DNA of 64,000 bases from Nitrospirota bacterium (lineage in GTDB: Bacteria; Nitrospirota; UBA9217): NCBI GenBank assembly GCA_963751455.1, contig CAVVUN010000001.1:64001-128000 (forward strand). Direction: 5' to 3'. Within the stretch, counting starts at the first letter, position 1. Each line of letters begins with the position of its first letter. The notes below the pieces were generated by a model, which saw nothing but the letters and a program-made list of their open reading frames with translations, was not told the DNA's origin and did no database searches. The translations under genes and the position numbers were made by a program. This document shows, piece by piece, positions 15,709 through 64,000 of this stretch.

Positions 15709-15903
15709 CTAGTGTAGAGTCTCTTAAATAGATGGTGTTATAAGATGGAGCGACAAATCGTCCTTATCTCGTCATTCCGGCTTGTCCGGAATCTTTCCAC
15801 CCATTCAGAAGGATTCCCGACGCGCTTCGCTTGCGGGAATGACCGTCTTGGGAAAGTGACTATGGCCGCAATAACACCATTCGTTTGTGAGACACTACAC
15901 TAG
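15709..15903. mobile_element. 195-bp MITE-like element with a nested REP-like palindrome
   Basis: Left end CTAGTGTAGAGTCTCTTAAATAGATGGTGTTAT matches the reverse complement of the right end, CTAGTGTAGTGTCTCACAAACGAATGGTGTTAT. Internal GTCATTCCGG...GCGGGAATGAC at 15771..15843. Confidence 0.75.
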
Positions 15904-16250
15904 CTGCTATTCATCCGGCGCCATGTGCGATACTTTTGCGACGAATTGCCGTTCTCTGAACTAACAAAGGAAGAACCGACTTTAGCGGAAAGATAATCAA
16001 TGATAGTCGGGTCATAGTTCGCGATAGTGTTTACGTCATAAATGGCTAAATTGTCAGGATTGTCCAGATGCTCCTGACTTTCTTCGCCCGATAGAAAACG
16101 CCAGCCGCTGTCTGATTCATTATCCGGCTCTTCCCGGTACATAAAGCCAACTTTCTTGCCCTCTACTGTTATCTGATCTGATGCATAGCAAGAACCAAGC
16201 CCTTCCGCGATGGGCATAATCTCAGATGGTTTAAGCTTGAACTCTTTCAC
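15900..16250 (-). CDS. DUF2185/Imm33-like orphan immunity protein
   Basis: CYASDQITVEGKKVGFMYREEP..DSGWRFLSGEES..IYDVNTIANYDP. AGGAGG SD precedes GTG 16250, and the stop lies in the MITE end. Confidence 0.85.
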   Translation of the reverse strand: MKEFKLKPSEIMPIAEGLGSCYASDQITVEGKKVGFMYREEPDNESDSGWRFLSGEESQEHLDNPDNLAIYDVNTIANYDPTIIDYLSAKVGSSFVSSENGNSSQKYRTWRRMNSS

Positions 16251-16351
16251 TAAAGTGCCTCCTGATACTAATAACGGGGGTGAAACAGGCATTTTTTGTG
16301 GTTTGTTCGCACTGAAATACTTATCTTCACTATATATAAGCCTATCTGCTA

Positions 16352-19147
16352 TTAGTGCCTTTTCAAACGAAGACTGTAAAACGTCAGAAGCACTCCTGTC
16401 GTTACCATAACAAAAGCGATTGCGATCATAAAAGGATATTCAATGATGAACACGACGGGTGTCAAGCACCACCGAGTAATCGTTCTGAGCGCTTCATGCC
16501 GCCTGATGAAATCAGCAACGGGCGGTGAATACCGATAATAATTTTGAACAAAGGCTCTTCCTGCTGCATTTGTGACAAGACATCGGTCTCTGAAGCTTCT
16601 GAGAACACTCACATGAGGATCAAGATACGAACCATATGCGGCTGTAGCGATGAAACAACCACCGCCTCCCCCACCGCCTCCTACGACACCACCCGTGTTA
16701 GTGCCACCGCCACCGTCTCCGTCTCCGCCAGTGGAACTCGAAGAGCCCAGGCCATGCAGGGAAATCGAGGTCGAGAGGTTTACATCAAAGGGCAGCGTGG
16801 CTTGAGCGGTATGATCAGTCGATGAGATAGGCGCAAAGACCACCGATAGCGTGCACGTAGCCGTCGGGGCGAGTGTTTCACCCGAACAGGTATCGCTCTG
16901 GACGCTGAACTCCGTTGCGTTCACTCCAGTCACAGTTGCAGTGCCAAGTGACACTATAGTTGAGCCTGAATTGGTGAATGACACAGTGTCCGTCGAGGCA
17001 GACCCAACAGTCACTGTTCCGAAATCGAGAGACGTCTTGTTTAGCGATACCTGGGGAGGCATGCCGGTCGCGTATTTGAGATGTTTACAAATAGCGTCAT
17101 AGTAGCTGATGTGAATCCTCCCGCTTGCATCAACGGCAATGGACGTATCCATGCCGACATCGCCGAGAGAATCGATTGTGTAGCTCTCCCATTTCCCGTT
17201 CAGGTTCGTTGCGTACTTCAGATCCCCGTTTGTCTCGTCGTAATAGCTGATATGGACCTTATTGCCTGAATCCACAGCCATCGACGTAAATTTGCCGGCA
17301 GAACCGCCGCTGTCGATAGTATATGCATGCCAGGAGCCAGATGCATTCGTTGCATACTTCAAATCTTTGTTGTATTCGTCATAGTAACTGATATGGAGCT
17401 TCCCGGAATTGTCGAGAGCTATGTCGCTGTAGGAACCGACTTTGCCAGCGATAAGTGAATCGATTGTTGTCTCCACCCAGGACCCTACAGTTCCCGTCGG
17501 GCTCGTCGCTAACTGTAGTCCGTTTCCTTGACAGCTTACGTACACGGTTCCGCTCGGATCCGTAACGACCGATGAATAGTATGGCCCGCACCCGATAATC
17601 GACGTCTTCCAGGTGCCTGTTCTGTTTGAAGCGTAGTAGATGCTGCCGTTATAAATCGGGGGTTGGCTATAGAAAGTGACATGGTCTTTGCCGTTGGCGT
17701 CAACGGTCAGCGATGTGTTGCTTATTGATTCCTCGGCGGTATAAAAAGGCGTGCTGTCCCACGTCCCGCTCGCATTCGTCACCAAAATAAATTTATTGAG
17801 CTGAAGATCCTTGCTGGTAATATGGACGTTGTCCTGGAAATCAACGGCAATAGAGGTGTATTGACCGCTTGCGCCAACAGCAATGAAGCTCCACATTCCA
17901 TTGTTTTTTTCGGCATACTTTAAAGTATCGTGTTCACTATCACTGTAACTGATGCGAACTATGCCGGTTTTCGCGTAATCGAGCGCAAGCGAAGAATATT
18001 CTCCGATGATCCCGCCGGTATCGACAATATTCATGGGCGGGGCGACGGAGCCATAGTAATTGACAGTAAGGTCGAAGTTGTCACTCAGGCAAGTGACATG
18101 GTAGTTGCTTCCCGAATCGGCAGCAACGGCAGAGTAGCGGCCGACGTAACCTTGAGATGCCAGCATCGTGGGCGCTGACCAGGTTGTGGTTCCGGCAGGC
18201 CTGACGGCAAGCATAAGGTTGCCCCCTGAGTTGTTGTAGTAACTGACATAAAGGGTGCCGTTGGCAGCTGCGGCTATCGAGTTATACTGACCTGCGTTAC
18301 TGGCGGAGTCAATCACTGTCGTATGCCAGCTCCCGCCCGAATTCGTCGCGTATGCCAAACCGCTGTCCTGGTAACTGATATGGACAACACCTGCCGTAAC
18401 GGTGATCGAACTGTAAATATTTGATGAGCTGTCGACTACTGTGTGCACCCAGGCACCCGTTGCGTTAGTAGCGTAAGTGAGTCCTGATAAACCATAATAG
18501 CTGATATGGGCCTTTCCACCGGAATCAACGGCAATCGTGGCCGATTGCCCTCTAATAATGCCCGTCTTGACCCAGGTCCCTGATGCGTTCGTCGCATACT
18601 TGACCGTCGGCGATAACGATCCGTCACGGTAAGCGATATGCGCCTTGCCGTTTGCTTCAACCGCTATACAGGACTCGATCCCGACATTGCCGCTGTCAAC
18701 AGTCACGGCCTGCCAGTTGCCTGAGGAATTCGTCGCGTACTTAAGCCCACCGTTCGCCTCATCGTAGTAGCTGATATGGACCTTGCCGCTCCCGTCGATC
18801 CCGATGGATGCGAAACTGCCGACACCGTAATTCGGGTCAACCACTTCGGTCTGCCAGTTCCCGCCGTCATAATAGGCATGATACAGCCTGTCGCCGCCAT
18901 ATGCTATGTGAGGTCGGTCAGTGAGGGGATCGACCGCGATGGCGCGAGGTGACAGTCTTGAAAAGTATTTTGGCGCATCTACCCGTTCGATGTTCCAGCC
19001 ATAAGCTGTTCCGCTGGAAGCTGAGACAACGCCGTGCAGGACAGCACCGGATGCACGTTCGTTTCTCGAGCCGGATTGTCCGCACCCAAAAAGAAGTCCA
19101 ATAAAAAACAATGCGATAACTATATGCCTACCTGAAAGAGTTAGCAT
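16352..19147 (-). CDS. Surface lipoprotein: beta-propeller-type repeats, choice-of-anchor D/ASH Ig domain, CFI-box-CTERM
   Basis: Lipobox LFGC; about 12 repeats of [27 protein letters not shown]; [30 protein letters not shown]; [30 protein letters not shown]. Confidence 0.9.
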
Positions 19148-19239
19148 TATTCGCTCCGCTTGAACGAAGTATCACGGTTTGTAAGTTCGCCGCGTCTGCG
19201 TTGCGCTCCGCCTGACCCAATCGATCGCTTTTCGCAATC

Positions 19240-20202
19240 TCACCCCTGCCAAAGCTTGTCCACATTCAGATTTCTGCACTTGCGGTCTTTCCTGCGCCGC
19301 ACGAAGTACGGATCATCACTGTCAATGTTATAGTGTTTTAGATCGCTGGCAAAGCCCCAATGACAAAGTTCTGGTAATCCAAGTAATGGTGTTAGATCGC
19401 CATCGACAATGTTCGTGCTACCCCCGAACAGAAGCGACTTCAGTTTTGTTAAATTTCTGACCGGGTCAAGTGACTGCACTTCTCCGCAGTCTACGAACCA
19501 AAGAAGTTCCAGATTGATCAGTTTGCGCACCTGCTCAATCGATCTAATACCGCTGCACCCATCCAAACGGATGCAACGCAGCAAAAGGATATCCTCAATT
19601 CCTCTCAAAGATCGCAGATGACGGAGATTGATTAACTGCAGTCTTTGAAGAGAGTCAAGGGCATTGAAGAACTCAATCTCTTCAAGACCGCCCCCCGATA
19701 AACAAAGTTCTTCAAGCTGCCATAACTCGCGAAAACGCTTCGATCCCAGTTTCCCGGGGTAGAGACCGATCGATAATTGATTTATAGATTTACATCCGAA
19801 TAGTTCCTCGGCCCCAGGAAACCACTCGATATTCAACTGTTCCAGTCTATTCCAAACTGAAAATTGCAAGCCGCGAGGTCGCGGCACATGAGAAAGCTCT
19901 AATGATCGCAAGGCAGGAAGGTCCGATAAAGGCGATAAGTCCCGAAGGTTTTGATTGACGATCCTGATCCCTGTTAAAAAGGGAATTTCCTTAAGGAACT
20001 CACATGAACCATCGAGCTTGCATCCATATAGGTAGTTGCATTCAAGTTCAGTGACACCCCTGCGCTGCATCCATTTCCCGATCTCGGGGGCCCAAGCCCC
20101 GGTTAAGACAACCCGGGGACCATAGCGGCCATTTACAATCTTGAATCCCTTGCTGAAAAGAGTTCGTACTTTGTTGATTATTGTCCGAACATAAATTTTC
20201 AT
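19240..20202 (-). CDS. Leucine-rich-repeat protein, probable orphan immunity protein
   Basis: Repeated LxxLxxLxLxx units, C-terminal TNIVDGDLTPLLGLP..HYN, no signal peptide, position downstream of the RHS tip. Confidence 0.75.
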   Translation of the reverse strand: MKIYVRTIINKVRTLFSKGFKIVNGRYGPRVVLTGAWAPEIGKWMQRRGVTELECNYLYGCKLDGSCEFLKEIPFLTGIRIVNQNLRDLSPLSDLPALRSLELSHVPRPRGLQFSVWNRLEQLNIEWFPGAEELFGCKSINQLSIGLYPGKLGSKRFRELWQLEELCLSGGGLEEIEFFNALDSLQRLQLINLRHLRSLRGIEDILLLRCIRLDGCSGIRSIEQVRKLINLELLWFVDCGEVQSLDPVRNLTKLKSLLFGGSTNIVDGDLTPLLGLPELCHWGFASDLKHYNIDSDDPYFVRRRKDRKCRNLNVDKLWQG

Positions 20203-20320
20203 GCATCATCACCATCTGATAAATTTAGTTCGGTTAAGAACCTTTCCAGGTCGATTTGGCACGCCCATTTTGTCAAGAATTCTCCAAATCTGGGCTACTT
20301 GTACCAAGCATGTAATAAAG

Positions 20321-20920
20321 TTATTCGATCACGCCTGCTTCAATGTAGCCTAAGTTTGTGAAGTTCTGTTTTATTAATTCTTGTAACGCTTCCTCAGTTA
20401 CAAATGTAGCCCTCGATTTTGGGTACTGTTTTATTCTGAACATCTTTTGACCTGCCCATTCTGATTTCTTGATAAAGATTCCCGTTCTCTTAAATGTGTA
20501 TTTATTCTGATTGCAAACGGGACACTCTATTTCTAGCCTTACATTACTTTTTTCTTCGTCGAGACTTATGAACTCAGTCGGCAAAACTCAGGACAATGTT
20601 GGCCCGTCGTAAGGGAATGCAACTCTCTTTTTCTTTCTTTTCTTGCTTGGGGCAACTACCTGGGTTTTACCAAAATCGCATTTAAAACCATTTCCCATAA
20701 GAAACTGCAGGGCTTTCGGTGTAACTACCATTACATACCCGCACCACGAAAAATCGCCTATGAGATCAGAGTCCGGGTCCCATTCAATCGGTAATGGTTC
20801 TATTAACTCAGATGTCCCTTGCCCGCAGTTCTTACATATCCCGCCTTTCGTCCATGTTCCGACATGCGAAAACCTAGCGAATTCATAATTTGGCGGATTT
20901 TCCATTAAATATATTTTCAT
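20321..20920 (-). pseudogene. Double-CxxC immunity-like protein interrupted by an in-frame TGA at 20588-20590
   Basis: ORFs 20588..20920 (CKNCG, IGDFSW) and 20321..20584 (CPVCN, MFRI..FVTEE) are in the same frame and separated only by one stop. Confidence 0.7.
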
Positions 20921-21282: not shown

Positions 21283-21756
21283 TCAATAAGCCCGCAATTT
21301 TCTATAAAACTTGTATATTCTTAGTACGATAGCTAAGATTATCGTACTTATAAAAGAATAAATAGCACCTGTAATAACCATTAGATTTCGGCCTAGGCTG
21401 TTAGTCCACATTTCAAAATATTTTATTTGATCCGGTGTTTGTTCTTTTTTTGAAAAAAAAGAATCACCATCGAGATCAAACAAGCTTAGTTTATATTCTA
21501 AAAACCTGTTAAAGAAATAAGCGCTACCAACCAACATCAGATATAAGGTAAAAAAATTGATTAAATAGAACCAAATAGTTCTTTCCTTCTTTTTTAAACA
21601 GTAATGCCATATTAACAGGCAATCCGTTGGGGACACAATAGTCATCGCAATGTAGATATAAAATTCATGGCCCTGCCACAAAATAGGCAAAATAACCATT
21701 ACAACTAGAGATAGCGTTAATATTAACGCATATAAAATAGAGTTACGTTTGCTCAT
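21283..21756 (-). CDS. Integral-membrane putative cognate immunity protein of RHS-1
   Basis: Starts 2 bp after the RHS-1 stop, AT-rich, about four hydrophobic segments, loop FDLDGDSFFSKKEQTPDQ..NSLGRN. Confidence 0.75.
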   Translation of the reverse strand: MSKRNSILYALILTLSLVVMVILPILWQGHEFYIYIAMTIVSPTDCLLIWHYCLKKKERTIWFYLINFFTLYLMLVGSAYFFNRFLEYKLSLFDLDGDSFFSKKEQTPDQIKYFEMWTNSLGRNLMVITGAIYSFISTIILAIVLRIYKFYRKLRAY

Positions 21757-21758: not shown

Positions 21759-24700
21759 TTAATTTGCCTTTTTGTACGGATTAGGATAACTAATTGTCCA
21801 ATTATAAGGTACATATGGATAGGGATGTCCACCGCGAAACTCACCGCCTGGGCCCATTCTATCATTATTGAATCCAGTTATATCCCAGACCCCGTCTTGA
21901 GTGAAACCGCTAAAATCCGTTAAACAATATTTTGATCCACACGTACTCGAATAATCTACACGAGTATTTCCAACATGAAACATCGATAATGTCATATTTA
22001 CTCCATAATCACCTGATAGTGATGTTGTTACACCATTTCGAATTCTACCTTCACGTCTTAGTTGTTCAGAATCATTTCTTAATAAACTTTGGGTTCTAGG
22101 ACCCAAGTTCGCAGGTTCACCGTTTCCGCCATAATAGTGTGCCTTTGCTTCCGCATTAGAATCAATTGTTATATTTGACCGATTAGTATTTTTCGAAGCC
22201 AAATCGACCTTCTGACCTATTTGTAATTTGGTTGGATCGCCTTTAAAATCTGAACGTTCCCAGTCTTTGCCGGTTTCTTGCTGCAAGCCCCATAAAGTAT
22301 CGCCCTTTTCAGCAACAAAACTTCCATCGCCATTATCAATCCACATGCCATTTGGGTCGATGTATTTCAACGGATTTAAGCCAGCATATTGATACATATT
22401 CAAATTTTGTGATTTAAATATCCCACCACCACCCTTTAAGCTACCCGCGTTCAACGCTTCTTCCGGAGACAACTGCGTCCCTATGGGGAGATATTCAGGC
22501 AACGCCGGATCCGCACTGATCCACTTGGAGAGCACCGCATCATAGTACCGTGCTCCATAATAGTACAGCCCTGTCTCGGGGTCAAGCTCCTTGCCCGTGA
22601 ACTTGTATCCAGGCGTATTTCCACCGTAATAACCGCCCTCCTCGATCCACGTCTCCCCGTACGGGAAGTATTCGAGATGCTGATACACCGCCCCGTAGGC
22701 GTCAGTGATCATGTTGCTCGATCCCAGATGGTCGGTGTGGTAGTAGAACTCATCCTTCTCGATAGGCTGGTTCACGCCGGTTACGTATCCGTCAGGCAGT
22801 CTTTTGATGATACCGAGCTTCTTTCCTCTGCCGTTGTCCAGCCCGTTTATACCGGGTGTGGTCGTTGTCGTAACCGAGGTAACGTTCGATGTTGTGGACG
22901 TAACCGTTGTAGCGCTGTTTGCGGTGTTCGTAGGCGGCGTCTTGACGAGCTTGGAAACCACTCTGGTTCCGCCTGCGTACACTTGCTTGGTGCCGAGTTC
23001 GCCGCTTCGTATGGAGAAGAACTTGTTGACATAGATGGTCTCTCCATGCTGGCCGCGTTTCACCACTCGCTCGCCTGCGTCGTTATATAGGAAGTATGTC
23101 GCCTTACCGTTGTCGTCTATCTCTTTGACGCGGTTCTCTTCGTCCCACGTAATCACTCTTCTGGTGCCGTTGAGCTTGCTGGTCCAACCCGTCATATTGC
23201 CGTTTGCGTCGTAGGTGTAATTCTTATCGTCTGTTTCCGTGACCGCGTGAGGCTTGGTGCTGTGGCCCGTCATGTACTGATAACTGAGCACGTAGTTGGT
23301 TTCTTTGGGCAGTATCTCTGTTGTTGACGGCTGGATGATCTTGTTCTCCAGCTTCTTCTTAGTGAAGTTCCCGATTGTGTCGTACATGAACCGGTTATGA
23401 TATTCGTTCTGCTTGCCGGGTCCGAATGTGTACTTGCCCTGTGCGTCGACGATCTGGTACAGGTCGTCGTATTCATATTCCTGTATTACGGGTCCTGCCG
23501 GCAGGGCGGTGTTAGTCGGCACGCCGATGTTGTTGGTAAGAGATTTAATGTTTCCGACCAGATCATAACCGTAGGAAAGCTTCTGGACCTGCTGCCCGTT
23601 GCTAAGTGTTGTGTCGAGCGTAGCCAGTCTGCGATTCAATTCATTGTAAGTGTACTTCGACCAGGTGCGGTTGCCGTAGGTGATCCGGGTCCTCTGGCCG
23701 AATTTGTCATACAGAAGTAAGTTGATGTAGTTGTATCGGTTCCCGCTCTTCTCTCCCCATGCTTCCTTTAACAATCCTCCGTGGTCATAGGCGTAATGGA
23801 GCTTTTCGCCGTCGGGATAGGTCATGTCGACCATCCTGCCGAAGGAATCAAAGACGTAGTCTGTGCTGAACTTCTTTTTCTGGACGGCAGGAGTATGCGC
23901 AAGAACTGTTTTTTCTTCTCGTGTTATTTCTCCAAGTTTGCCGTAATAGCGCGCTTCCTGACCGGACTCGTCGTCGACTATCTTGATTCGGGCTGCGCGG
24001 TTATAGGCTTCTTCCATTTCCCCGTAGGTGTACGTTACGTAGTCCGCCTTCCCGTTGTAGTCGATGGCCATCAACCGGTTAAAGTCATATTTATAAGTGA
24101 TCTTGTCGTTTTTGGCAGTAAATTTCGTTATAAGATTGCCGTTATTGTCGTAGTTGTACACGGTCCTGCCCGTATCCGGGTTCGTTATGGCTGTCCGGCG
24201 GCCGAGATCGTCGTATTCAACCGATGTCACGTTCCCCCTGTTGTCGACAACCGTCGCAATCTGTCCGAGGGAATCGTAGTTGTAGGTCGTTACAAGCCGT
24301 ACCCACGTAGTCGCGGTATCCTGGATCCAGTTATATTCCACGACTCCGATGATCCGGTCGTCCACGTCTTTATACGAGATCTTGGTGCCACGATGATTTG
24401 CCCCGTTTAGGTTGCCTTCGGGATCCACGACAGTGGTCATCGCATAGAGGCGACCGTTGAACTCTCCGAAAGTGTATGTGGTCGTGGTCCGGGCCAACTT
24501 ATTCGGCACTGCCTTTTCGTCGGGCGCCAGCACCTCGATTGTCCGATCCAAGGCGTCGTGCGCAAAGTACGTGGGGTTCAGGCTACCAGTATAACGAACA
24601 TAATTTTCTCCGGTAGCAGTTTCAAAGTTCGGCTGGCCTTGCTGCTCCACGCGCCCCAGTTCGTCAAATTTGAGCACCCCGGAAATGGTTATGCCTTTTT

Positions 24701-27700
24701 GCGGATTGCCCTCGCCGGCGTCGACATCGGCATCCTTGCTGATCTGGATGATCCGCTTCATGCCGTCGGCAAACGTGATCGTCCTGACGATGAAGGCGTC
24801 GCTTCCTTTCACCGAAACTGCCTTGTTTTTAGTGACCGCTCCGGCCGGTTTTGGAGAATTCTCGTCTGTATCGTTGTCGTCTCCTTGAAGATCCGGACCT
24901 GTAAATTTGAAGGCAATTGTAGGCTTCGGGTTACTGTCTGGAGTATTTCCTATAGTTCCTGAGGCAACGCCGGCGCAGACAGGGATATCGCCCACGACAA
25001 CGTCATAGGGACTGCATACCGCGACTGTGCGGCCGAATTCGTCGTACAGGTTCACTTGATAATTGTGGTTCAGGTCCTGCGTCCAGTCAGGCTGCCCGAA
25101 GAGAACGTTGTGGCTGGATGTCGAATAATAAGATGCGTTCGCCTTTTCCGAGAAGTTATCCAAAATCTTCGTAACATACGTCTCAACGAGCGGGTCATAG
25201 AAGTATTCAAGTTTATAAAGAACAGGGTCTTTGATAGCGTGAAGATTTCCGTTGGGGTAATACTCCATGACCCAGTGTGATTCCGGACCCTTCGTATTAT
25301 GCAGAATGACGTCCGTCATATTGCCCGCGCTGTCGTAACCCGCCCACCTCCATCGAAGCGGATTAACGTTACCTGATCCGTACACCTTGATCTCCTGCGA
25401 CTTGATAATATAATTAGTGGGATCAATGTAATAGTCGATCGTTGCGGTCACGTCGTCGCTGGGATCGCTCGTCGGGTACTCCTCGCCTGCATCAAAAAAC
25501 CACTTTACATCGCCGTGTTCGTTGTACAGGAAGGCCTGGTAGGTGCTCTTCCTGCCGGTCTCGCTTTCTGATGAACCGTCAAAGAAGTTCGTTATAGTCT
25601 TGCTCAGACCCGGGAAAATTGTGTCCGGAATCGGATCGGTTTTGTCCATAACCTGCAGCAGGTCATGGATATTCTCGACTTTCGACCAGACATTGCCCGC
25701 ATATCCCTTCATCATATCTTTTGTTACTGTTGTCTGGAGCAATCCTTTCCGATAGTAGTCGCTGTTGTAGTAGGTCTGAATAACCTGTCTCGCGATATTC
25801 TTTCGGGCAGGATTGTTAATTGTTTCAGGCGCGTAGGTCTCAGTCACTGTCCTGAAGCCGTAGAATTCGCGCTCGTAGCGGTCCTGGTACCCGCCTGCGT
25901 AGGCATAGTCGTTCCTGTAGGTGTTCCGCATGCCGTTTGTGGTTTTGACCCTGCTCATGACCCACTGGCTCTGGGGCATATCGTAGGTGTTGCCCACGCG
26001 TTCGTATTCGATCTCGAGCTTCCCGCCCAGCGGCCTCTTGACCGTTTTGAGCAGGTTGCTCCGGCCGGTCGTATTCAACGCCACGGTCAGGCTTTTTTCA
26101 GTCGTGCTCGATATCTGGTCCGGATAGCCGTCGCCGTTCACGTCCTGGATGGCGCTCTCGGCCCGCGCAGTGTTCTCTGATTTGCTGACGGCCGGGTTCA
26201 GATCGATGTAACAGGCCGCGATGCAGATCGGGCCTATCGTAATGTTGAAGGCGAAGCCGCCGTTCTTGCTGAAGCTCTGATTGTCGCCCAGACTGCCGCC
26301 TCCGGTCCACACCCGTGCCGGAGCGAACTTATTGCCGGTGTTGATGGCGACCAAAAGCGCGCCGCTGCCTTCAAGTACGAGGTCCGGGAGCCCATCGCCG
26401 TTCATGTCGACGAACTTCTGGTGGGTGTTGCCGAGACTCTGGGTCAGCGAATAACTTCCGGAGTAGCCCTTGACGCCGTCGTTAAAGCTCATACTGACGC
26501 CCGCATTTATGTATGTTGTCTCGCTGTCGTCGATCACACCCACGTTCCAGGTCTCCTCAGGCGCAAATTCATAACCCAGGTTCAGTGCTACGCGCCCGTT
26601 GTCAGTCACTTTGTCAGGCAAGCCGTCGCCGTTCATGTCCAGGTAGTCTGCCTTGACGTCATTGTCACGGGATCCCAGGCTTCCGGTCAATCCGAAGCTG
26701 GAGTTTTTGCTCCTCGGTTGGGCCACTCCGTCCTTCGGGTTGAACAGGCCCTTGGCGCTTGCTACTGCCTGCTGGACCGTGCCGCCGGGGGCGATATTGT
26801 CCGCTGTTGAAAGCGAATCGCGGACATAAGAAATTCCGGTACTGCCGACCTTGCCCGTTGCGTCGCCCAGGCCGCCGACCATGTTCGTGTACTGAATGCT
26901 GTTTCCGCCCACCATATCCGGGAACCGGTCGCCGTTCATGTCCATGAAATCGAGCAGACCCTGACCCGGGGTTTCGGTATGGTTGATGTTGATAATAAAT
27001 CCGATTCCATAGGTCTCCTCGAGTTCGACGATGCTCATGCGCGGCGGGGCGGTCGCGCCTGCGCCGCCGCTCGGCACGCCCGGGGCCTCGCTCTTGAGTT
27101 CATCCGCCCGCGGCAGGTGCACGTTGTTCAGGCCCATGCGCGAGGATTGCATCCGGCCTGCCTTAACGCCCCAATCGTCGTCGCCTGCGAACCAGCGTTT
27201 CTTTTCCAGCTGCGGCGCTGCAGGATAGGCCGTGAAATCCTTGACGCGCTTGCTTCGTGCCTCGTCGTGGTCTGTCGGCACCTCGTAGGAGCCCTCATTC
27301 GAGGGGAGTGCGAGCCGCGACTGGACGATAGGCTGGTCTTTCAGATCAATGTCGTTGTACGTGCCCTGGCTGTTGTAACCGGCGAAAGCCCATCCCCGAT
27401 AGGAATTGGCAAAAAGATCCCAGTAGCCGTACCTGTGCAGCATCGAAGACGGGGTAGCGGCAGGTGCATATCCGTTTGTGTGACGACGGATCTGCGTCCA
27501 GAGGCCCCAGCCGAGGTTGAGACCCGCGAGTTCGCTATCCTCACTCGTGAAATACATCACCAATGTATCGTTAGCCTGCGCATCGACGTCGAACGTATAT
27601 TCACCGGGATTGAACCGTTTGCCCGTAAGCGCAACAGGCTTCTGTGCGATGGTCTGTTCCTGTACCTGGGGCTTGCCTTCGGAGTCTATTACGATGAAGC

Positions 27701-33457: not shown

Positions 33458-33534
33458 CGTCTCCTTAATTTTGGGGCCTTTCATAAAGTGTGATCGTTTG
33501 TATCGTGTCCGGCTCCGGATTTATTAAAATAAAT

Positions 33535-38800: not shown

Positions 38801-38872
38801 AAGGAATACATTAGGGTCACCCATATGACGCTAAAGCGAAGCGTTTGAGCCGCTTTCTTTCGGCTGTATGGT

Positions 38873-47277: not shown

Positions 47278-47684
47278 CAGAGCAAGGGTATCAAGAACCT
47301 CGAAAGAATCTCGAAATCCGTGGAAACCGACGACCGTTCCTACAAGGGATTCAATCTCTTCAGCGATGATGATCTCAAATTGTTTAAAGTTCTCGCCCGT
47401 GGTGAGTTCAACATCAACGGCTTGCAGAACAAGTCTCTGCGAAAACAACTGCCATCAATAACGAGTAGCACAATGACGAGAATTCTGAAACGCCTTCACG
47501 TCCACGGGATTATTCGTAAAGTCGGTAAAACATATAAGTACTACGTCTCAAAGCTCGGCAAGGCTGTTATCACTGCGGGATTGACCGTTCGAAATATGTC
47601 AGTAATCCGCAATTAGCGCATGTTTGATGCATGTTCGATAAATAATTCTACCCATTTTGAGAAGCTTTTGATTCTTTAGTAACT
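47272..47684 (+). mobile_element. 3' remnant of an IS transposase with winged-helix C-terminus, abutting the orphan RHS truncation
   Basis: RSYKGFNLF..LARGEFNINGLQNKSLR..TRILKRLHVHGIIRKVGKTYKYYVSKLGK resembles the C-terminus of transposases often labelled MarR-like. The right boundary is approximate. Confidence 0.7.
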
Positions 47685-53500: not shown

Positions 53501-56500
53501 CGTTTGAGACCGTCGGCGAACGTCGTTGTGTTGATTGTGGCTGACGTACAACCCAGGAAGGAGTCGGCCCTGTTCGTCGTGACGGCTCGCGCCGGAATAT
53601 TGTTCGAGGCCGGTACGTCATACGTGAAAGACACGGTAGGCTGGCAGACAGGACTCCCTCCGCTGTTCACGGCATTAGGGCCATAGACTGCGATAAGTCT
53701 GCCGAAATCATCGTAATTGTTGACCCGGAAGTTTCCGTTGATGTCCTTCGTGGTCAAAGGTTGACCGAAGCGTGGATCATAAAGGGCCGAAGAGCTGTAA
53801 CCGAAGGAATCGGATATACCGGTAACATAAGTCTCGACATCGTCATCATAGACGTATTTAAGCTTATAACCATCTGAATATTTATTGTACTGGGGGTCCC
53901 CCGCAGGTAAAGTGATGGTCCAAAGGTTGCCATCCGGGTAATAGGTCATATTCCACTGAGCATTCTTGCCCCCCTGTACAAGCATGGTAAAATTAAGAAG
54001 ATTTCCAGTGCCGTTTTCGTAATTCCCCGAGCGGCTCCGGTAAATCGTACCCTTGGTATCCTTCACAAGGATACTGCTCGGCTTATCCATGATGTAATGC
54101 GCCGTGTCCTTCTGATTGTAGCCGATCGAGACATAAATGTCGTCGACGGTTCCGTTGTCCGCACGATCCACGTATTCAAGAAGGTTTCCGTACTCATCAT
54201 ATGAGTTATATTCCTGGGACGTGTTCTTGACAATACTCTGGGTCGAGACGTCGTAATAATTGGTTGTCGTCATCGTTAATTCAGGGAACTGCGATAAGGG
54301 ATCTGACCCGGGTACAAGCTCGTAATCGTTCTCGGTTGCCACATAAGCCGGGTTCACAGTGCTCTGAATATTTTTGATGTCCTGGATGCTCCCTGAGCGT
54401 GTGATAGAATTTGCGAGGAGACCTTTAAGATAATAATTCTGGTTATGATACGTGTTGACAATGGTGACGGTGTCGTTTCCAGAGCCCCGTGTTTCAGCTA
54501 CAGTATGGAAACCGTAAAATTCACGCTCGTCGCGGCTGTAGAACCCGGAATCGTAGGCATATGAAGTTTCATAAACGTTCTTGAGCCTCCCGGAAGAGTC
54601 CTTCATGCCGTCGTTCCTCGTCACTTTCGACAGCACCCAGTAGCTCTTCGGCATGTCGATGCTCTGGTTCTGATTGGAGAAGTCCACCTTGTTGCCCTTG
54701 CGTTTGTAGTTTATGGTAAAACTCCCACCGAGGGGGCCATTCGCTGATTTTAGAAGATTTGCCTTGGAAGAGAGGTTACGCTTAACCAGGATAGTATGTT
54801 TGTCGAAATCCGCGTCGTGAGTGATTTTGAAAATATGGTCCGGCAAACCGTCACCGTCGATGTCGGTGAAATCTATATGAGAAGTAGTGGAATGGGTCGG
54901 TATCTTTTGGGGATTATAATCCGTTACAAACGGATTATTATGTATGTCCGGATTAGAGATATTGTCTTCCCTGATAATCCATGAAAGGGGATTTCCCGTC
55001 AACGGTGATATAAGTTGATACAATTCGGAAGAGTCAGGGAAACCGAGCACAGATGACTCGAGCAAATTGCCGCCGGGCAGGCTTCCCAAACCGAATTTGC
55101 GTTTATATGTCGAAGTACTTGCGAGACTGCCGGAGTCCTTGCTCGACCTCACAGCCGGCGCAAAAAGACCAGATCCGTTCACAATCCCGGCACTAATAGT
55201 GTCCATTAGGACGAAATTAGTATTAAAGAACCCATAGATATAGCTTACTGTGGCGCTATTGGATAGCGTATCGTTATAAAGAAACGCAGACAGCCTTTGA
55301 TAAAGCTCTTGATCTGACACTGATAAAAGAAGGCTTGTAAATAGGTCTGGTGCAACGCTCAGCATTTGCGCAGTCACAGCTTCAGGGTCCAGAGACGAAG
55401 AGAACTGCCAGAAAGGAATTGCCCATTTCTCTTCGTTCCCGAATCGACCTCCTTGGTTGATCCTAACCACCATAAAGCTGTCATTGGAGTTCTTTGAAAC
55501 CATATCAGGCAGACCGTCATCATTAACGTCGACCATATCAAAATCGTGATTAGTCACGCCCAGATTTATCCCCCAAGAACCTCCTGAATAGTTCAGCCAA
55601 TCGTGAGTGCCGAAGGTACCCGCAATCGTTTTGTTACTGCTCTTTCTCATCGGAATGTTAGCCGGCGTTCTCCATTCTTCCTGATAGCCGAACCGGCTCC
55701 CGAGGTTCAGACGAACAAGAAGCTTACCAGAGCCGTCAGGCTCCGGAGGCCCCTGTGTTACCAGATCCGGCAAGCCATCGCCGTTGATATCGATCAGATC
55801 GGACTGCGTCGAAGCGGTCCCTTCAGTATAACCCAGGTTTAATGAGAAGAGATTCCAGACGGAGAAAAGGCTGGAAAAGTCTCCTGAGGAATACGCGCCA
55901 CTCCCTGAGGAAAATAAATACTGACCAGCGGAGGAAATATTACTGACAACAGGTCCAACGCCGAGATTATAGCTGGTACTCTCGTTTGTGACGGTCCTGA
56001 AATTACCAGGATTAAGCCTGCTTGGTGTGGTAAAACCGCTTTTCCCGTCATTCAGTGTCACACCGGTTGTTGTAACCTGGTCGGGATAATGGTCTCCGTT
56101 CATATCAATCAAGTCGAGCGATGTACCGCTGTTCCCGCTCCCTTGCTGCCATGAGACGCCGGCGCCTGATCTCGTGGAACTATTATCTACGCCGGAACTA
56201 AGCCGGATTGTGGCGCTGGAGGCCTTCGGATTTATACGAGTAGAGCTCAACACCGAGCTGCCGATAAAACATCGATCCGCGCTTCCCAGCCAAACAGGTG
56301 CAGCTTGTGAAAAAGAATTACCGCCCGGCAAGGGCACCATGCGAGTGAAATCTTGAGACCCGGCATACGATCCGTCCGCCTGCTTCGTCTCGATAACCAT
56401 AAGGCTTTCAGCCCACATCTTGCCGCTATTCCATTGGCCGTAGTACCATTCGCGGAACCCCCCGCCATAAGCTTCTATTTCCTGCTGCGGATCCAGGTAA

Positions 56501-56914
56501 TAAAATTGAACGTCCGGATTGAAGACAAACTGATTTCCCGAAGGAGTACATGTCCACTGTTCCTGACCATCCTGGGTGCACTGCACGTTAGCGCAGGTTG
56601 AGGAGTCATTTGGGCAATATTGCGTGTAGGTGATCTTCGGCGACCAGGAAACGGAGCTTCCTAGGTTTTTGTCTGACCGCACTTCGAAAAAGAGCTGATC
56701 GCCGGCTGCGACGGGAATCGTGAAGTCGTGGGAATTCACTCCACCGGCACCCAGTTGCTGTTTCCAATAGGATTTGTTGATGCCAAGAACCCGCGCCGTA
56801 AAGGAAGCGGTTGATTGTGTTCCATTAACTGTGCCGGTAATCTCTATAGTCCCGGAGTACGGAGCGACCCAAGTTAAAGCCGTTGTTCTTGGGATCGTAG
56901 TCCATAAGGGATAA
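50560..56914 (-). CDS. RHS-2 C-terminal part: FG-GAP, TcdB_mid, RHS core and M15 peptidase tip
   Basis: Open frame from the IS junction. Tip has RTVEQQ, SKH..AMDI, GLKWGGDF and WDPGHLEM, the M15 Zn-peptidase motifs. Confidence 0.93.
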
Positions 56915-56918
56915 TTGA

Positions 56919-58436
56919 CCTTAACGTTGCATAAAAAATCGCTATGCGGCCCGTTGCAATCGGTCGAGATAATGCAACAACCCCTTTTTGACTCGTGGAT
57001 TGGCGTTCATTGTCAGAGTTAGCTTGCCGCCGGGCTGTGTCAGGCGGCCGGCACGCTGTATAAGTGTTCTTCGCAGGGTATTGGGCTCCGTGAACTCCCA
57101 AAGAGCGGCCCGTTTTTCGGTGGTGCCCCGGTCGGGTTCATGCGCGACCATGTGAAGTTCCTTCAGGAGATTGTGCGAGATGATCGCCGACATCATGTAT
57201 AGCTGATTTCCGTGCAATCTTCTCACAGCCACGTAATCCATATTGCACTGGGACTTTAGCTCTCCAAGGATGTTTTCCTGAGAACCGCGGCCCTGATGGA
57301 AGTTCAGGACTTTCTTCACCGTCGTTGTTTTGTTTGTAACGATCACCTTGAAGTCAAACCCGTATTCGTGCGGCGTGAACATATCAAGCTGCACCGGCTC
57401 TTTTGACTGCTTTTTGGCTTTTTGACGAATAAAAAGAAAGCGGAACCGGCTGTCCCAGCTTTTCGGCTTCCAGGGTGTGTCGAAATAGGAAACAACGGAA
57501 TCGTAACGCCTCCAGCGTTTTTTGGCTTCGATCATGTGCTTGAGTTCGGAGAACCGCTCAAAGGGGACCGAGATGGTGAACTCAATTCCGTCGCGCTCCA
57601 GCGCGCCGACGATTTCATCGCTGAAGAAAGCGCTGTCCATGCGCACTTCGATGACGATATCCGAACAGGTTGCACGCACCTGTTCGATGCACGCAAGGAT
57701 GAACGCCCGGGCGCCGTTGGAATCATGTACGTTACCCGAACGGGGCAGGACGTCAAGGACCATGCCCAACTGAGCGATCATGCAGAAAAGCGGATAATAG
57801 CTTCTCTGCCCTTTTTTCTTTTTGTTGAAGCCTACGGCGGCACCCTCAGCCCATCGGGAGGTCGAGAGCACAGAGCCGTCGAAATCAAGCGTCACGCGAC
57901 GAAGCTTCAAACCCTGTATGCGGGAGAGCGACATTTCCCGGCAGAACCGACGAAGATTCAAAATGTCCTTTGCGTCGACCGTCATCAATGCCCGGCTGAT
58001 CGTGGAAACGTCCGGCATTTTTCGGAGGCCCAGAAGACGAAGCGCCATAAGGTCGTCCTGATAGTATTCGATGTCGCGGAGTTTCCGATAACCCAGCATC
58101 AGATGCACGATCAGCACGAGCGTAATGACGTGATTGCCGAAGATGGCGCTCGACGGTAGATGATCAAAGCAGCTTTTCAAGCGGGCTTTCAGATTCAGCT
58201 TCGTGAAGAATGCCTGAATGATAGCAAGGCCCGCGTAGGAAGTGAGCTGTTGATCCTCGAACTTCAGTTCCGGTATTTTGTGAACGCGGCTTAGAACCTG
58301 TGCTTTACTGGACTTCACTTTCAGTGGCCTCCTGCTTGAGTGAAATAATGATATCGCAGGAGCACTATATCCAATAATGAAGCCTGTTTCCAGAGGTTTC
58401 TGCATATTTTCAAGAAATGTTTATGCAACTACAAGG
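56919..58436 (-). mobile_element. IS1380-family insertion sequence, 1518 bp, inside RHS-2
   Basis: TIRs CCTTAACGTTGCATAAA / CCTTGTAGTTGCATAAA; 4-bp duplication TTGA at 56915..56918 and 58437..58440. Confidence 0.93.
56942..58405 (-). CDS. IS1380 family transposase
   Basis: LTSYAGL, PDVSTISR, TLDFDGS, SYYPL, VRMDSAFF and FHQGRGSQENILGELK. Confidence 0.95.
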   Translation of the reverse strand: MQKPLETGFIIGYSAPAISLFHSSRRPLKVKSSKAQVLSRVHKIPELKFEDQQLTSYAGLAIIQAFFTKLNLKARLKSCFDHLPSSAIFGNHVITLVLIVHLMLGYRKLRDIEYYQDDLMALRLLGLRKMPDVSTISRALMTVDAKDILNLRRFCREMSLSRIQGLKLRRVTLDFDGSVLSTSRWAEGAAVGFNKKKKGQRSYYPLFCMIAQLGMVLDVLPRSGNVHDSNGARAFILACIEQVRATCSDIVIEVRMDSAFFSDEIVGALERDGIEFTISVPFERFSELKHMIEAKKRWRRYDSVVSYFDTPWKPKSWDSRFRFLFIRQKAKKQSKEPVQLDMFTPHEYGFDFKVIVTNKTTTVKKVLNFHQGRGSQENILGELKSQCNMDYVAVRRLHGNQLYMMSAIISHNLLKELHMVAHEPDRGTTEKRAALWEFTEPNTLRRTLIQRAGRLTQPGGKLTLTMNANPRVKKGLLHYLDRLQRAA

Positions 58437-61400
58437 TTGATTTGCGGCTTGAACCGGTAGATAAGATTGCCATTGCCGTCCGTGGCATTTGGATCTACGG
58501 ACATCGTACTGCAGCCGAATTGCGATAAATCCGTTGTTATACCGCAACCGGTAATGCTTGAAAAAGCCGTTTCAACCGAGAAAGTTACGCTGTTCGGATC
58601 AACATTCATCTTGGATGAAATATCAAAGAGAAACTGTTCTCCTTCCTTCACGTCATCGACTGTTTCGTTCAGGGTAATCGTCTGCTCTGAATCTGCCGGC
58701 AAGGTATATTCTTTAAAGATGGTAGTGTCATCCACAGCGGAATTCGGACTCGCTCGCAGGATTCGGACGGTTACATCATCGGTTGTCGGATGTTTTTTAA
58801 TTGTCCCGTTCAAAATCATAGTTCCTGCAAATGGAGATGCCCAGACAACCTTTTGTGAATCGATGAGAGAATAATCGGAAGAGCCTTGATAAGTGTACAA
58901 TGGCCGGCCAATCGAGTCTTTAAGGTTCTGAAGTGATTGTTGCGTTTGGTTCCCGGAATTTGTGTAGGTGATAACAGGGTCGAAAATTATCTGGTCGTTC
59001 TCGCCGTTATCTATGGAATTAAGCCGGAAATAGATACGCTCGCCTTGCTGAACATTCGTCAAATCGATGCTGTTTGAACCTGTGTTATTCTCGACTTCGC
59101 CGAGGAGATGAACTGTATAATCGTCTCCGGTAATAGTGAGTTTGCCGATCTCGGTATTTTCTCGGTAAACATACAGGATTACTCCATCGCCGTCATTCTC
59201 TTGTTTCGTTTTTTGGATGGTGCCGGCTATACTGATGTCACCGCTGAAAGGTGCGACCCATTTGCGCACGGGATCGGCTAGCGGGGAATATGGCGTTGTA
59301 CTGCTCGCTAATGAAGAAAGATCTGTCGCGTTTGACCAGGTGCCTTGTGCGAATTTTTTTTGAGACGGGATGAGATTCAGGGAAGCTGCTCCATTCGAAA
59401 TGGAGTCTACAAGTCCGTCCCCGTTTATGTCGCTTAATGTAGCATTGGAACTGCTGATTGTCGTGGCCTTATTATTCGACATGGATGCTGCCATAGTATA
59501 AGTCGCGTTTCCTTCGCTGTCCGTCGTCTTCTTCTCCGACTCGATTATTCCAAGCCCCACGTTTGTAATTGGTCCAAAACCGGTAGTTGTTCCGGACGGC
59601 GCTTCCTGATCAAACTGGTTGAAATAAACTCCGTCCGGATTAACCATATCGGGCAGTCCATCCCCGTTGAGGTCGATAAACTTTCTGGTAGTAGTGACGT
59701 TTGACTCGCTGTGGCTGGTTAAACTGCCGGTTGAAGGCGCTTTTAATGGGAGCGGTCCTATTCCTTGGTATGTTTGTTTGCTTGTTGCATAATCTTCTAT
59801 CTTGGTTATCGCATCGGACTCGGGGGTATACCATGCTTCTTGCTCGCCGAAGCCCTTAATCGAACCGTCATCCAGATGATCCATTCGATAATAATCGAAA
59901 CTGTGGCTGTAAAATACCTGATCGTTTGCTCCTTTTGCCGTAATAGTGCTCAGCAAGGTTTTGAAAAAATCGCCTATGATGTAGTCGAATTTGTAACTCC
60001 TGATCGTCTTATCTTTAAACTTAACAACGATGCTGTCCAATATATAGCGGATAGCCGTTTTGAATCCAGCAATGCCGCTGATAATAAGATCCTGGCGGTT
60101 CCCGGCTTTACGAATGAATTGAACACTATATTGCGCCGGAGCACCAGTACTGTTATTCTGTGTATACGTAATCGTATCAGGGTAAAGATAAACCCAGTTC
60201 TCTTCGCTAAGTGAGGTCTTTGGAGGACTTGAGGGGTCGAATAGACTGTTTAAGTAAATTTCCTGAGAATCTTTATAATAAGAAAATGTCGTCACGTTTC
60301 CATTGGTATCTACAACCTTATCAAGGAACCATTGAAATATGTCAGACGGATTCTGATAGTCAGAGAGTCGCGATTGGTCACTCGATCCGTAGTAGTACTT
60401 GACACCTGACTTATCGGTAACTTCCCACCGATAATTCGTTGGATCGCTCCCTTTACGAATGACCCTCAGAAAATCGCCCTCTACTCGTTTGTAAAATTGT
60501 AAATCCGTTGTTCGGTTGATCTTGGGCGTGTTCCACCTGAATACAGGCGCCAACTCCTGTCCAGCAAGGAGATAGCTTTCTGTCTCGTATGTATCATTAT
60601 ATTGAGGTACGCCCCAACGAGTGTCTACCTGAATGCTTGGGATCGGGATGTCCCAGCCAAGGCCCATCCACCCGTTAGCATTGTTGCTGGTATAGGTGAC
60701 CCTTAAGTCAGGCGTATACGCGCCTCGACCTTTTGGGATTTGGATCGGGTAGCTGAGGTTGGCAGTTCCCTTGTTGTTCGCCCTCGGAGGTTCTATGAGA
60801 TCAATATTCGTGCCCGGGTCCGCTGCCTTGATGTCCTTGATCGAGGTCGGATTAAATGTTAATGCTTCGGGATGCTCCGGGACAACAAGGGTGGAATTTA
60901 TAATATCGGTGAAGTGGTCCGATGAAGACGTGACCAGAGAAGCACTGGCATCCACCTTTTCACGCGTGAGCTGCTGCCAGCGCAGAAGAGATTCATCGTA
61001 GTAGTACATATTAATGTCGTTGTCTGTCTGGCCCGCCGCAAACAGTGCCTTTGAATAGCCGAACGAAATCTTGATAGGCTTTTTGAACTTCATGTGGGGT
61101 AGAAAGCGGTAGCCGGCGGCAGGAGACGTGACGTTTATCATGCCGGGATTGAGGCGATTGAGGTCGGCCTCTGTCAGCGGGATAATCGTAATCTCGGTCT
61201 TCTGGTCCACGGCGTCTGCGGGAATATCAAGTGTCACTCCACCATATTGAATTTTCTTTGCCTGGCCAGGTGATACTTCTTCGCTGAACTTTTCGCGCTT
61301 ACTCATTGCTGCATGGCTTGAGTTCGTCGTACTGCTCGGACCGTTGTTCAGAAGGTTCTTATTAAGAGTTATGGTCTGAGTAAACACAGTGCTATCGGGA

Positions 61401-63013
61401 TACGTCCCCGTTATGACAGATTGCCAAGGGTCGTTGTCGTCCTGGTCTGCGTAAGACGTCTCATCCTTAGTGACCGGGACACTGAAAGAACCATCAATGT
61501 TCGACACTGTCTTTCCGGAGATATCGACCTGAACCGTCTCAGAAGAATTGGGTACGGAATCGAGGAACCCTTGGATATAGGCTGTTCTCCCGAAATACTC
61601 TCCGTTTAACGGGTAATTTACAACAAGACCTCGCCCGACTCGCGAGCCGACCGGGCTTGCGATAAGTTCGATTTCATTTATGCCGCCGACGGTCGCACCA
61701 CGTCGTTTTTTGTCCGGGGTGACCTGTATATTTAGTCTAAGCGTGTCAGTTGCGACTACCGAGGGTATTTTGATATCGTTCCACCCGTCCTTGAGAGAGG
61801 ACAGGTCGACCGAACCGCCCGAAGCAAAGTTTTTCCATTGACCGCTTTCGACGTACTGAAGGGTTATTGTGCCGGAAGGAACGCCGGACACACACCACAG
61901 ATTGATCCTCACTGTGTCCGGCTGGACTGTTCGTTCTGTTTTTAGATCAAGATTATGCGTTGATTTAAGCTCAAAATAGGTAGCCGGATCTCCGTCGATC
62001 ACCGTCTGGGCGGAATGGACGGCATTTTCTGACGTCCCGGTCACCGAGGAAAGGACGTTCCAGCCGCTGTCGAGCTCTGCGACGAGTTTAAGATCTCGGA
62101 TCGAATATGAAGAGTGATCTCTATCCGTGACCTGGTTGATGAATTCTATGGTATTTATGCCGTTTACAAGCCATGAAGGACTAATCTCTTCTGCATGCGC
62201 TTTCCAAGCAGGGTTATCCGAAGTTGTCGGGACGAATCCGCCCATCCAGGACAGACCGTTGATCCGTCTTTCCGGAGAGATCGGGTAGTCTGCATTATAG
62301 GAAGCGTAGTAAAGGAAGGCACGCTTTATGAGCCTGGGGTCTGAATTCAATGTGAAGCTTACCGTATAGGAATTGCCGTCAGCAGGCACATCAATTGTTT
62401 GGGGCATGGCGCCAAGCTGCATCATATGGTAAGGCATCGGCGAAGAGGATAATATCTTTTGAAAATCTGACGCTGTCTTGACGTTCTTCAGAGTCAGCGT
62501 CGGGTCTCCTGGATCTGTTCCCCATATCTCAATTTCCTTGATCCCACCGGCGTTTCCACCAGCAGCGGTGAATTCCAGCATGAGTTTGTCGGTGTTGAGA
62601 GCGGAAGTCGCGGTAAGCGTATTCCATGCAGTCGTTTGGGATTTGGGAGTGATATTGTCGAGGCCCGGCACTGCAACCCAAGAGCCTGAACTGCCGTCAT
62701 AGACAGCAAGATTGTAGGAAGCGCTGCCGTAGATCTTGATGAGGCCGATATTTCTGGCTCCTGGGAGGGTAACCATGACCCGTGCCGGTGCCATCGGGGC
62801 ATAGGCTGTGTTCGTGTCAAGGTCGAAGAGCGTCCAGGCCGAACTATCTTCAACCCACGCGCCTGATGATTCTACCCTCACAATGGAGGGATTCAGCTTG
62901 ACGATATTCTGGCCGCCTGATCCGCCGAAGACGGCGTAGCTTCCTAAGATTGCAGTGGCAGCCGAGGCTATCAATAGGATTCTCACCATCCCGCATTTAT
63001 TGAGACTGCTCAT
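58437..63013 (-). CDS. RHS-2 N-terminal part: signal peptide, discoidin-like domains, ZU5, SpvB, FG-GAP
   Basis: GGGAGG SD before ATG 63013; hydrophobic leader; ZU5 GVTLDIPADAV..DHFT; SpvB GTANLSYPIQIPKGRG..NGWMGLGW. Joins 56914 in frame once the IS is removed. Confidence 0.93.
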
Positions 63014-63177
63014 GGCGCATACCTCCCGAAAAATGAAAAGATCACTTCTCACAGCCAATGCTCTAAAAGAACGCCATTGTCCCCTTCATGATCCCTTCTT
63101 TATATAAAGGCGCGCACGGGGAGGGAGAATACAATGGGATTATTCGAAGGATAACACGACTTGCATTCCATTCCTGA

Positions 63178-64000
63178 CTACGGTGTTAGGAACGGCAACG
63201 GATAGCCATGATAATTCTCCGACATGTCGGCTCTAGTCGGAGCTGTTTGCGGAGGCGTAGGCGACGTCATATCAATCTGGCATGCCGTTACATAGACGTC
63301 GCACTGCAATCCGCTCGCGACGCTCCCGTTCAAAACCCGTGCGTTCGTAGTATTTACCCAGTTGCCCCAGACCTCGTCGTACTTGTACTGCTTGGTCGAA
63401 CTATTCCAAACATCGGCCCACAGACTGATATAATATGATTTAGCATTAATCACTGAAAGCCACGTTATACTGATATCTTTCACGTTCGCATTCGCTGCGT
63501 TCGAGACAAGGGAGGCGCTGATGTCCGATCGGGAGTCTGTTACAGAAAGAGGAATGAGATTCGGATTCGGATTTGTATTCGCGAAGCTGAAGGCAGCCGA
63601 CTCCGAAGCCCCTCCATATGTAGCGGTTACGGTGTAGGTTCCTCCTCTGACCGGTTCGATATTGTAGTACCAGTATGCATTGTGGCCCTCGTTTGCCGGA
63701 TAAATGTAATTCATGACAAGACCGTTAGGATCTGTAACCATAATGTTCCAGTCGCCTGAGGGGACTGTTGGCGAAGGATTCGTGGATAAGTCCTGAATCG
63801 AGGTCCAAATGGCCAAAGCGTAGATAGGGGTATTATTCGAATCGCGCATGCCATAATCGAGTATGCCGCCCGCAGTCTGAAGACTGTAATTAGCAGAGAT
63901 CTGCCCCCCGCCCACGGGGAAGGTGAAAGAATACTCGGAGATATTCTCCTGAGGGGCAAGGCCGGGCGACGATAGATGGTTGGCGTAAAGAGCGACAAGA
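63178..64000 (-). CDS. RHS-associated surface protein, paralog of 35032..36510, 5' end outside window (probable frameshift near 63915)
   Basis: YALAIWTSI/YGLVIWTSL, GDWNIMVT/SDWNITIT, YPANEGHNAYW/YPATNAHYTYW, DVYVTACQIDMT/DVYVTACEQDMT, DMSE/DMSD. Confidence 0.85.
   Translation of the reverse strand, partial: LVALYANHLSSPGLAPQENISEYSFTFPVGGGQISANYSLQTAGGILDYGMRDSNNTPIYALAIWTSIQDLSTNPSPTVPSGDWNIMVTDPNGLVMNYIYPANEGHNAYWYYNIEPVRGGTYTVTATYGGASESAAFSFANTNPNPNLIPLSVTDSRSDISASLVSNAANANVKDISITWLSVINAKSYYISLWADVWNSSTKQYKYDEVWGNWVNTTNARVLNGSVASGLQCDVYVTACQIDMTSPTPPQTAPTRADMSENYHGYPLPFLTP

Follow-up and report, generated by a model that had tools for sequence, protein, structure and literature searches.

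Two units of lipoprotein, RHS gene and small downstream gene

The stretch of DNA analysed here (the window; 64,000 nucleotides, positions 64,001 to 128,000 of contig CAVVUN010000001.1, Nitrospirota assembly GCA_963751455.1) belongs to a 5.7-Mb genome, G000, which is 100% complete by markers and whose family-level relatives are Nitrospirota. It carries two units with the same gene order on the minus strand, each consisting of a lipoprotein gene, a giant gene for a leader-CBM32-ZU5-SpvB-FG-GAP-RHS protein, and a small downstream gene. In unit 2, lipoprotein 2 (63178..64698; 506 amino acids (aa) from the first ATG) extends beyond the window end to G000:C1:128698, has an ISH6-like element abutting its 5′ end, and is separated by a gap of 165 bp from RHS-2, which is followed by a 218-aa gene. 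RHS-2 lies in two parts: the N-terminal one (58439..63013) encodes a hydrophobic leader, CBM32/discoidin-fold domains, ZU5 with an HFT motif, SpvB and FG-GAP, and the C-terminal one (50560..56917) encodes FG-GAP, TcdB_midN, the RHS/YD core, a PxxxxDPDG motif and the tip. In unit 1, lipoprotein 1 (35032..36510; 492 aa) is followed by RHS-1 (21759..33454) and a 157-aa gene. The RHS-1 sequence has five frame changes and then a 10.2-kb open frame covering ZU5, SpvB, FG-GAP, TcdB_midN, RHS and the tip. The RHS cores are 37-42% identical, the tips are dissimilar, and the lipoproteins share 40% identity; a whole-genome search found no third lipoprotein copy in G000. The duplication extends upstream of the lipoproteins, where it takes in an AraC-type response regulator, intact in unit 2 and a remnant in unit 1 (36783..38806, minus strand). 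A recent duplication of the unit was rejected, since the paralogues are ~40% identical and both pair types occur, one each, in the genome G031. The repeated unit and the different tips had been pointed out in an earlier note made from the window sequence alone, and both observations hold.

The domain content of the RHS proteins was determined by family scans and fold comparison. In Pfam, both proteins matched SpvB (PF03534, E 5e-25 and 2e-30), PF12256, PF13517 and PF05593, which together cover SpvB, the FG-GAP propeller, TcdB_midN and the RHS repeats; the core was also matched by TIGR03696 of NCBIfam. Residues 1-720 of RHS-2 were modelled with AlphaFold2 from a 40-row alignment (pLDDT 86.8). 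The model has an ankyrin ZU5 fold at residues 571-709 (Z 14.1, rmsd 2.5), which the Pfam scan misses (E 0.3), and a CBM32/discoidin fold at residues 316-453 (Z 14.7, rmsd 2.6), with matches extending into the N-terminal part. These folds agree with the discoidin-like and ZU5 segments of the earlier note. Its claim of Sec-type leaders was borne out by hydropathy, the only method used for this feature: a hydrophobic leader with a basic n-region, either a cleaved signal or an anchor, is found in both window copies and in 22/22 RHS homologues, which are all the full-length or near-full-length ones found. The HFT motif closing ZU5 is equally constant (22/22), and we take it to be a self-cleavage site, as in PIDD. 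MafB-N (DUF1020) was not among the Pfam matches of the RHS heads, and a search for shorter homologues of the head returned a single protein. The combination of signal peptide, ZU5, SpvB and RHS is not new; as the earlier note had held, it matches the published TcdB/TcaC class (PMC3482391; this source and, below, PMC7738311, PMC7861908 and PMC13018210 are represented here by excerpts).

The new element of the locus is the upstream lipoprotein; the toxin architecture and the leader are already known. At E <= 1e-3, 66 homologues of the lipoprotein were found. In an alignment of 63 rows, lipobox Cys38 is conserved in 90% or more, and a strict lipobox is present in 51. The model (pLDDT 91.7) is all-beta and consists of four Ig/FN3 sandwiches arranged as 2 x (Ig-like + FN3). 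The profile of the first half matched the second half in 75/75 rows, which confirms the internal duplication seen earlier as repeated FN3-like units. In fold searches with the model, all matches were to generic FN3/Ig folds (Z 10.6 at best). Pfam, NCBIfam and PHROGs assign the lipoprotein to no family (best Pfam match fn3, E 0.019), and its Atlas matches are all unnamed and below 0.9. Searching 1.84 billion representatives with a profile yielded 77 proteins at E <= 1e-30, including some giant multi-FN3 proteins; from the profile matches, 30 standalone full-length homologues (420-455 aa) were picked, and 27/30 of these have a lipobox. The lipoprotein is not described in the literature searched, mostly without subscription papers; the supplements of PMC3482391 on architectures and neighbourhoods were outside the scope and may mention it. 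It is apparently a lineage-restricted partner family, undescribed so far.

Linkage of the lipoprotein to RHS genes

The linkage was counted over 17 genome loci after removal of duplicates; about 30 distant standalone lipoprotein homologues stand outside this count. An RHS gene lies 0.04-3.3 kb downstream of the lipoprotein on the same strand at 14/17 loci, and at the remaining three (L020, L024, L031) the contig end is reached within 2.6 kb. None of the 14 informative loci is thus without RHS. Of 401 Nitrospirota genomes, 9 have the RHS head and 10 a strong lipoprotein match, with both in 8; the lipoprotein had matched 12 genomes, and two weak FN3-only matches were dropped. The two genes are on separate contigs in G006, and in G304 the RHS head is directly preceded by a different lipoprotein. 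The Geotalea class was represented by 301 genomes; two of them have the lipoprotein, and the same two have the RHS head, with the genes adjacent. The genes between lipoprotein and RHS differ by locus, and the lipoprotein is the constant first gene.

In the case of 60 metagenome loci with an RHS head, some of which duplicate genome loci, the lipoprotein was present upstream in 9/12 close ones (of the other three, L056 is too short) and in 3/48 distant ones. The latter are L091 and L094, which are near-identical, and L097, where 19 bp separate the lipoprotein stop from the RHS start; the pairing is retained there at an RHS identity of only about 25%. The lipoprotein is therefore not obligatory for the RHS family. 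The idea of a dedicated partner, put forward in the earlier note, stands as regards the tight linkage at the informative genome loci; it does not stand as a requirement of the RHS family.

Trees of 17 intact pairs were compared, with RHS-1 of the window excluded and the RHS tree built by a quick method. The lipoprotein and RHS trees share a 6-member clade holding unit 2 (support 100), and the pairwise identities of the two proteins are correlated (Spearman 0.90). The congruence indicates inheritance as a unit and does not indicate binding.

The upstream slot was also inspected at RHS genes of other groups. A CarboxypepD_reg lipoprotein-like protein occupies it in 5/5 tested members of one distant group, and no surface-type gene was seen there at several distant RHS loci. 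At L063, L065-L067 and L071, the RHS leader ends in a lipobox-like Cys, and a CarboxypepD_reg or beta-propeller lipoprotein precedes the gene. At L073, L077 and L083, a 480-660-aa secreted protein lies directly before a distant ZU5-SpvB-RHS gene, with a C-terminal sorting domain of the type IX secretion system (T9SS) in 2/3; this protein is a candidate for an analogous partner. G000 itself has three more leader-bearing SpvB-RHS genes (~2,100 aa), all of which lack the CBM32-ZU5 head (L121-L123; G000:C2:371567-380514, C15:1093731-1102711 and C15:117918-126716). Each adjoins a ~800-aa lipoprotein without a Pfam family, and two of the pairs are divergently oriented. A query with the C15 lipoprotein matched no other genome among 401.

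Tips, interrupted copies and neighbouring genes

The RHS-2 tip (50563..51135, minus strand) is predicted from its sequence to be an M15-type (L-Ala-D-Glu) peptidoglycan peptidase and thus to act on the envelope. It matched a PHROG M15-type endolysin (E 1.7e-9) and PF13539 of Pfam (E 0.009); in PDB, the only matches were weak ones to LysB4 (E 0.03) and an L-Ala-D-Glu peptidase. The tip contains SKH..AMD..GHLE, aligned to LysB4, and these residues presumably provide the His/Asp/His zinc ligands of M15. The gene downstream (49848..50504, minus strand) matched no family in the Pfam, NCBIfam and PHROG scans; its position and N-terminal hydrophobic leader fit a periplasmic immunity protein, which is the predicted role.

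In the case of RHS-1, the tip (21762..22346, minus strand) consists of a LysM-like segment and a domain weakly resembling colicin M. The start of the tip gave a weak match to ActS, and we take it to be LysM-like. The resemblance to colicin M comes from a weak pairwise match (E 0.005) and from the nearest named Atlas cluster, Colicin_M (0.87, 47% of members), which is a lead only. The tip gave zero matches in Pfam, PDB and plasmid searches. The colicin M motif DxYDx5HR (PMC5821083) is absent from the tip, which reads DGVWD and then NDR. The tip of an intact 3,714-aa protein, P0076, is 85% identical to that of RHS-1, while the cores of the two are merely 42-56% identical, which is consistent with tip exchange. 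A small gene downstream (21283..21756, minus strand), with three segments counted as hydrophobic at the chosen cut-off, is predicted to encode a membrane immunity protein.

Among relatives, Pfam recognised TseH-like and M23 tips in 2/13 full proteins scanned, and further tips (4/15, E <= 5e-4) are RNase A-like (RNase E 4.8e-28), M91, DUF5675 and a deaminase (E 5e-4). The genes downstream of the tips are predicted, by sequence and position, to serve as immunity genes. Such a gene was readable at seven lipoprotein-linked loci (the two window copies, L016, L052, L060, L091/L094 and L115); judged by eye, it is exported or membrane-bound at five and small without a leader at two. Envelope targets predominate among these loci and are not the rule. 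The envelope-targeting cargo of the earlier note is thus retained for the RHS-2 tip, and family-wide envelope-only cargo was rejected because of the RNase and deaminase tips.

Both RHS genes are interrupted in the assembly, a point missing from the earlier note, as are the other insertion elements and the orphan cassette described below. An IS1380-family element of 1.52 kb (56918..58438, minus strand), which has 10 near-identical copies in G000, splits RHS-2; the flanking halves align end to end with the intact homologue P0083. RHS-2 is certainly inactivated by this element in the assembly. An IS4-family element (about 33519..34880, plus strand) separates lipoprotein 1 from RHS-1, and an ISH6-like element (36924..38324, plus strand) splits the AraC-type regulator remnant. 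The frame of RHS-1 shifts five times in the first 1.46 kb (33454 to ~31995) and not once in the following 10.2 kb; the chance of such clustering is about 1e-3 (post hoc). In a background test, 2/46 proteins of relatives mapped to a split gene in G000, both to one gene. The clustering suggests a local consensus error, and the frame changes may be assembly errors. The best of three listed public sequencing runs (0.13 of words), none of them RNA, left this zone uncovered. As assembled, the RHS-1 copy looks inactivated. At G000:C1:140746-149650, housekeeping-type genes are seemingly split or truncated, judged by eye, which suggests indel-rich local patches of the assembly.

The neighbouring genes include an orphan RHS C-terminal cassette (45160..47280, minus strand), which is 66% identical to the RHS-2 core and bears a third tip. 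Directly downstream of it lies a TPR protein with a leader (43236..45125, minus strand), a candidate immunity protein. The cassette and a cluster with an M48 peptidase and a PsbP-like gene (40568-41023, weak match, E 2.9e-5) are flanked by family-less paralogues at 38873-39508 and 47741-48451 (57% identity). The tail downstream of unit 1 (15900..20920, minus strand) holds a 110-aa open reading frame, an LRR protein, a CFI-box-CTERM surface protein and an Imm33 immunity gene. The surface protein (16352-19147), between the LRR and Imm33 genes, is a lipoprotein-like propeller protein of 931 aa with choice-of-anchor D and CFI-box-CTERM domains.

Delivery, alternative explanations and known systems

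Delivery machinery was searched in genomes carrying the module. The TcA models PF18276 and PF20220 matched 0/4 genomes and did match the pADAP control plasmid; with control genomes matching, TssC was found in 0/5, VgrG above the cut-off in 0/5, and PAAR in 1/5 (G063, separate contig). In that genome, which is without TssC, the PAAR gene lies next to a sub-threshold VgrG-like match (G063:C9:64829-65809), possibly an extracellular contractile injection system (eCIS)-type locus. The earlier note had seen no TcA, VgrG or PAAR gene in the window, and this now extends to the whole of G000, where TssC was not found either; no genome-wide search for Hcp was made. GspE of the type II secretion system (T2SS) exceeded the cut-off in 5/5 genomes. 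G000 has a gspC-K cluster with gspD split in the assembly; the GspK model missed a GspK-like gene visible in this cluster, and this miss is no evidence of absence. Of the delivery systems that the earlier note had wanted looked for elsewhere in G000, TcA and type VI secretion system (T6SS) markers were not found, and T2SS was. Delivery by TcA or T6SS was rejected on the negative marker searches and the leader in 22/22 RHS homologues.

We consider it highly probable that the locus encodes an antibacterial polymorphic toxin. With more reserve, we favour the reading that this is a TcA-less, leader-bearing toxin of TcB-TcC type whose co-inherited lipoprotein is predicted to bind the N-terminal head and hold the toxin on the surface; a direct partnership of lipoprotein and RHS protein appears somewhat probable from the sequences. 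The ~3,600-aa RHS precursor would cross the inner membrane via Sec and fold into a TcB-TcC-like cocoon, inside which the tip would be freed by cleavage at the PxxxxDPxG site. The head would be severed from the cocoon at the HFT site of ZU5, and the lipoprotein would tether or escort this head. The outer membrane would be crossed probably via T2SS. The CBM32-fold domains may then bind glycans of a neighbouring cell, where the tip would be released.

Several points weigh against this reading. Closely related RHS genes at L053 and L061 have no lipoprotein over 9.8 kb upstream, and neither do 45/48 distant RHS loci, several of them with the same head. Other lipoproteins of various kinds (Ig, NHL, MAM) are encoded in the same operons, and the one studied here could thus be a further surface protein expressed with them. 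Linkage in an operon is by itself enough to expect congruent trees. A folded cocoon of ~400 kDa may exceed the capacity of the secretin, and both window copies are interrupted. These points bear partly on an explanation that we regard as rather unlikely, in which the toxin is the same and the lipoprotein, transcribed with it, only aids cell-cell contact as an adhesin or surface protein and never touches RHS. The lipoprotein's generic Ig/FN3 fold without a catalytic signature would suit this role, as would the RHS genes lacking it and the operon shared with other variable lipoproteins. The lipoprotein is, however, the sole constant neighbour, with RHS at all 14 informative loci, and it is retained beside RHS genes that are about 25% identical.

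The lipoprotein could also be a dedicated outer-membrane export factor like MafA, which would make a two-gene secretion pathway independent of T2SS. The gene logic is that of mafA-mafB, where MafB secretion requires MafA (PMC7738311). We find this improbable, as the lipoprotein model consists of four soluble beta-sandwiches with Ig/FN3 matches only, RHS genes without the lipoprotein exist, and GspE was found in every module genome tested. Very improbable is the view of the RHS protein as an orphan B-C component with an incidental leader, for which a TcA, T6SS or eCIS from another locus would provide delivery. The SpvB and TcdB_midN domains and, in G063, the PAAR gene and the sub-threshold VgrG-like match are in its favour; TcA, TssC and (outside G063, 0/4) PAAR were not found, the leader is constant, and immunity-like genes lie downstream, whereas Tc loci are reported to lack them in the excerpted part of PMC7861908. 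For G000, this explanation is largely refuted.

A wider form of the preferred reading, which we regard as tentative, sees in TcA-less TcB-TcC cocoon toxins a widely distributed antibacterial weapon that works by contact, in which a lineage-specific surface partner would replace the TcA syringe and grip a CBM32-ZU5 head that self-cleaves, releasing the cocoon on the target. In Nitrospirota, Geobacteraceae and distant GC-rich lineages, this partner would be the lipoprotein with four Ig/FN3 domains; in other lineages, different lipoproteins or T9SS-tailed proteins would take its place. How Sec-exported RHS/YD cocoons exit without TcA or T6SS and reach their targets is an open question, stated for teneurin-like proteins (PMC13018210). 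This locus family makes the export question testable, as it offers a concrete candidate partner, a defined CBM32 + ZU5 head and, in a named Geotalea strain, an intact copy (L021). The host is of sediment type, and the toxin likely acts on rival bacteria, with the lipoprotein as what may be its surface anchor. The locus family further suggests that anaerobic sediment bacteria without T6SS compete by such a toxin route.

The TcdB/TcaC-pathway class with ZU5 was defined by Zhang et al. 2012 (PMC3482391), with the signal peptide in the definition; the pathway is a prediction, for which the excerpts give no experimental test. Our RHS proteins share with it the leader, ZU5 before SpvB, the integrin-like (FG-GAP) propeller, RHS, and a variable tip in toxin-immunity order. 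They differ in that, in the excerpts, TcdB is the only neighbour named and no lipoprotein partner or CBM32 head is described, and in the ZU5 motif, which is CxH there and an invariant HFT here. Tc/ABC toxins have the TcB- and TcC-like domains and the PxxxxDxxG cleavage motif in common with our proteins (PMC7861908), whereas here a single fused gene carries a leader, TcA was not found, immunity-like genes are present, and the tips are mostly of antibacterial type. Bacterial teneurin-like proteins are also Sec-targeted YD-shell polymorphic toxins without an obvious delivery machine (PMC13018210); the Gram-negative ones are lipoprotein-anchored within the toxin chain, whereas here the candidate anchor would be encoded separately from the toxin, and the shell belongs to the SpvB/TcB type. 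The closest working analogue, without membership, is the Neisseria MafA-MafB system. It likewise has a conserved lipobox gene upstream of a polymorphic toxin that carries a signal peptide and a conserved N-terminal domain, followed by immunity genes and orphan cassettes (PMC3482391, PMC7738311). The present system differs from it in the missing MafB-N match, in a cargo enclosed in a 3,500-aa RHS cocoon, and in a partner built from Ig/FN3 domains, whereas MafA reportedly forms an oligomer in the outer membrane.

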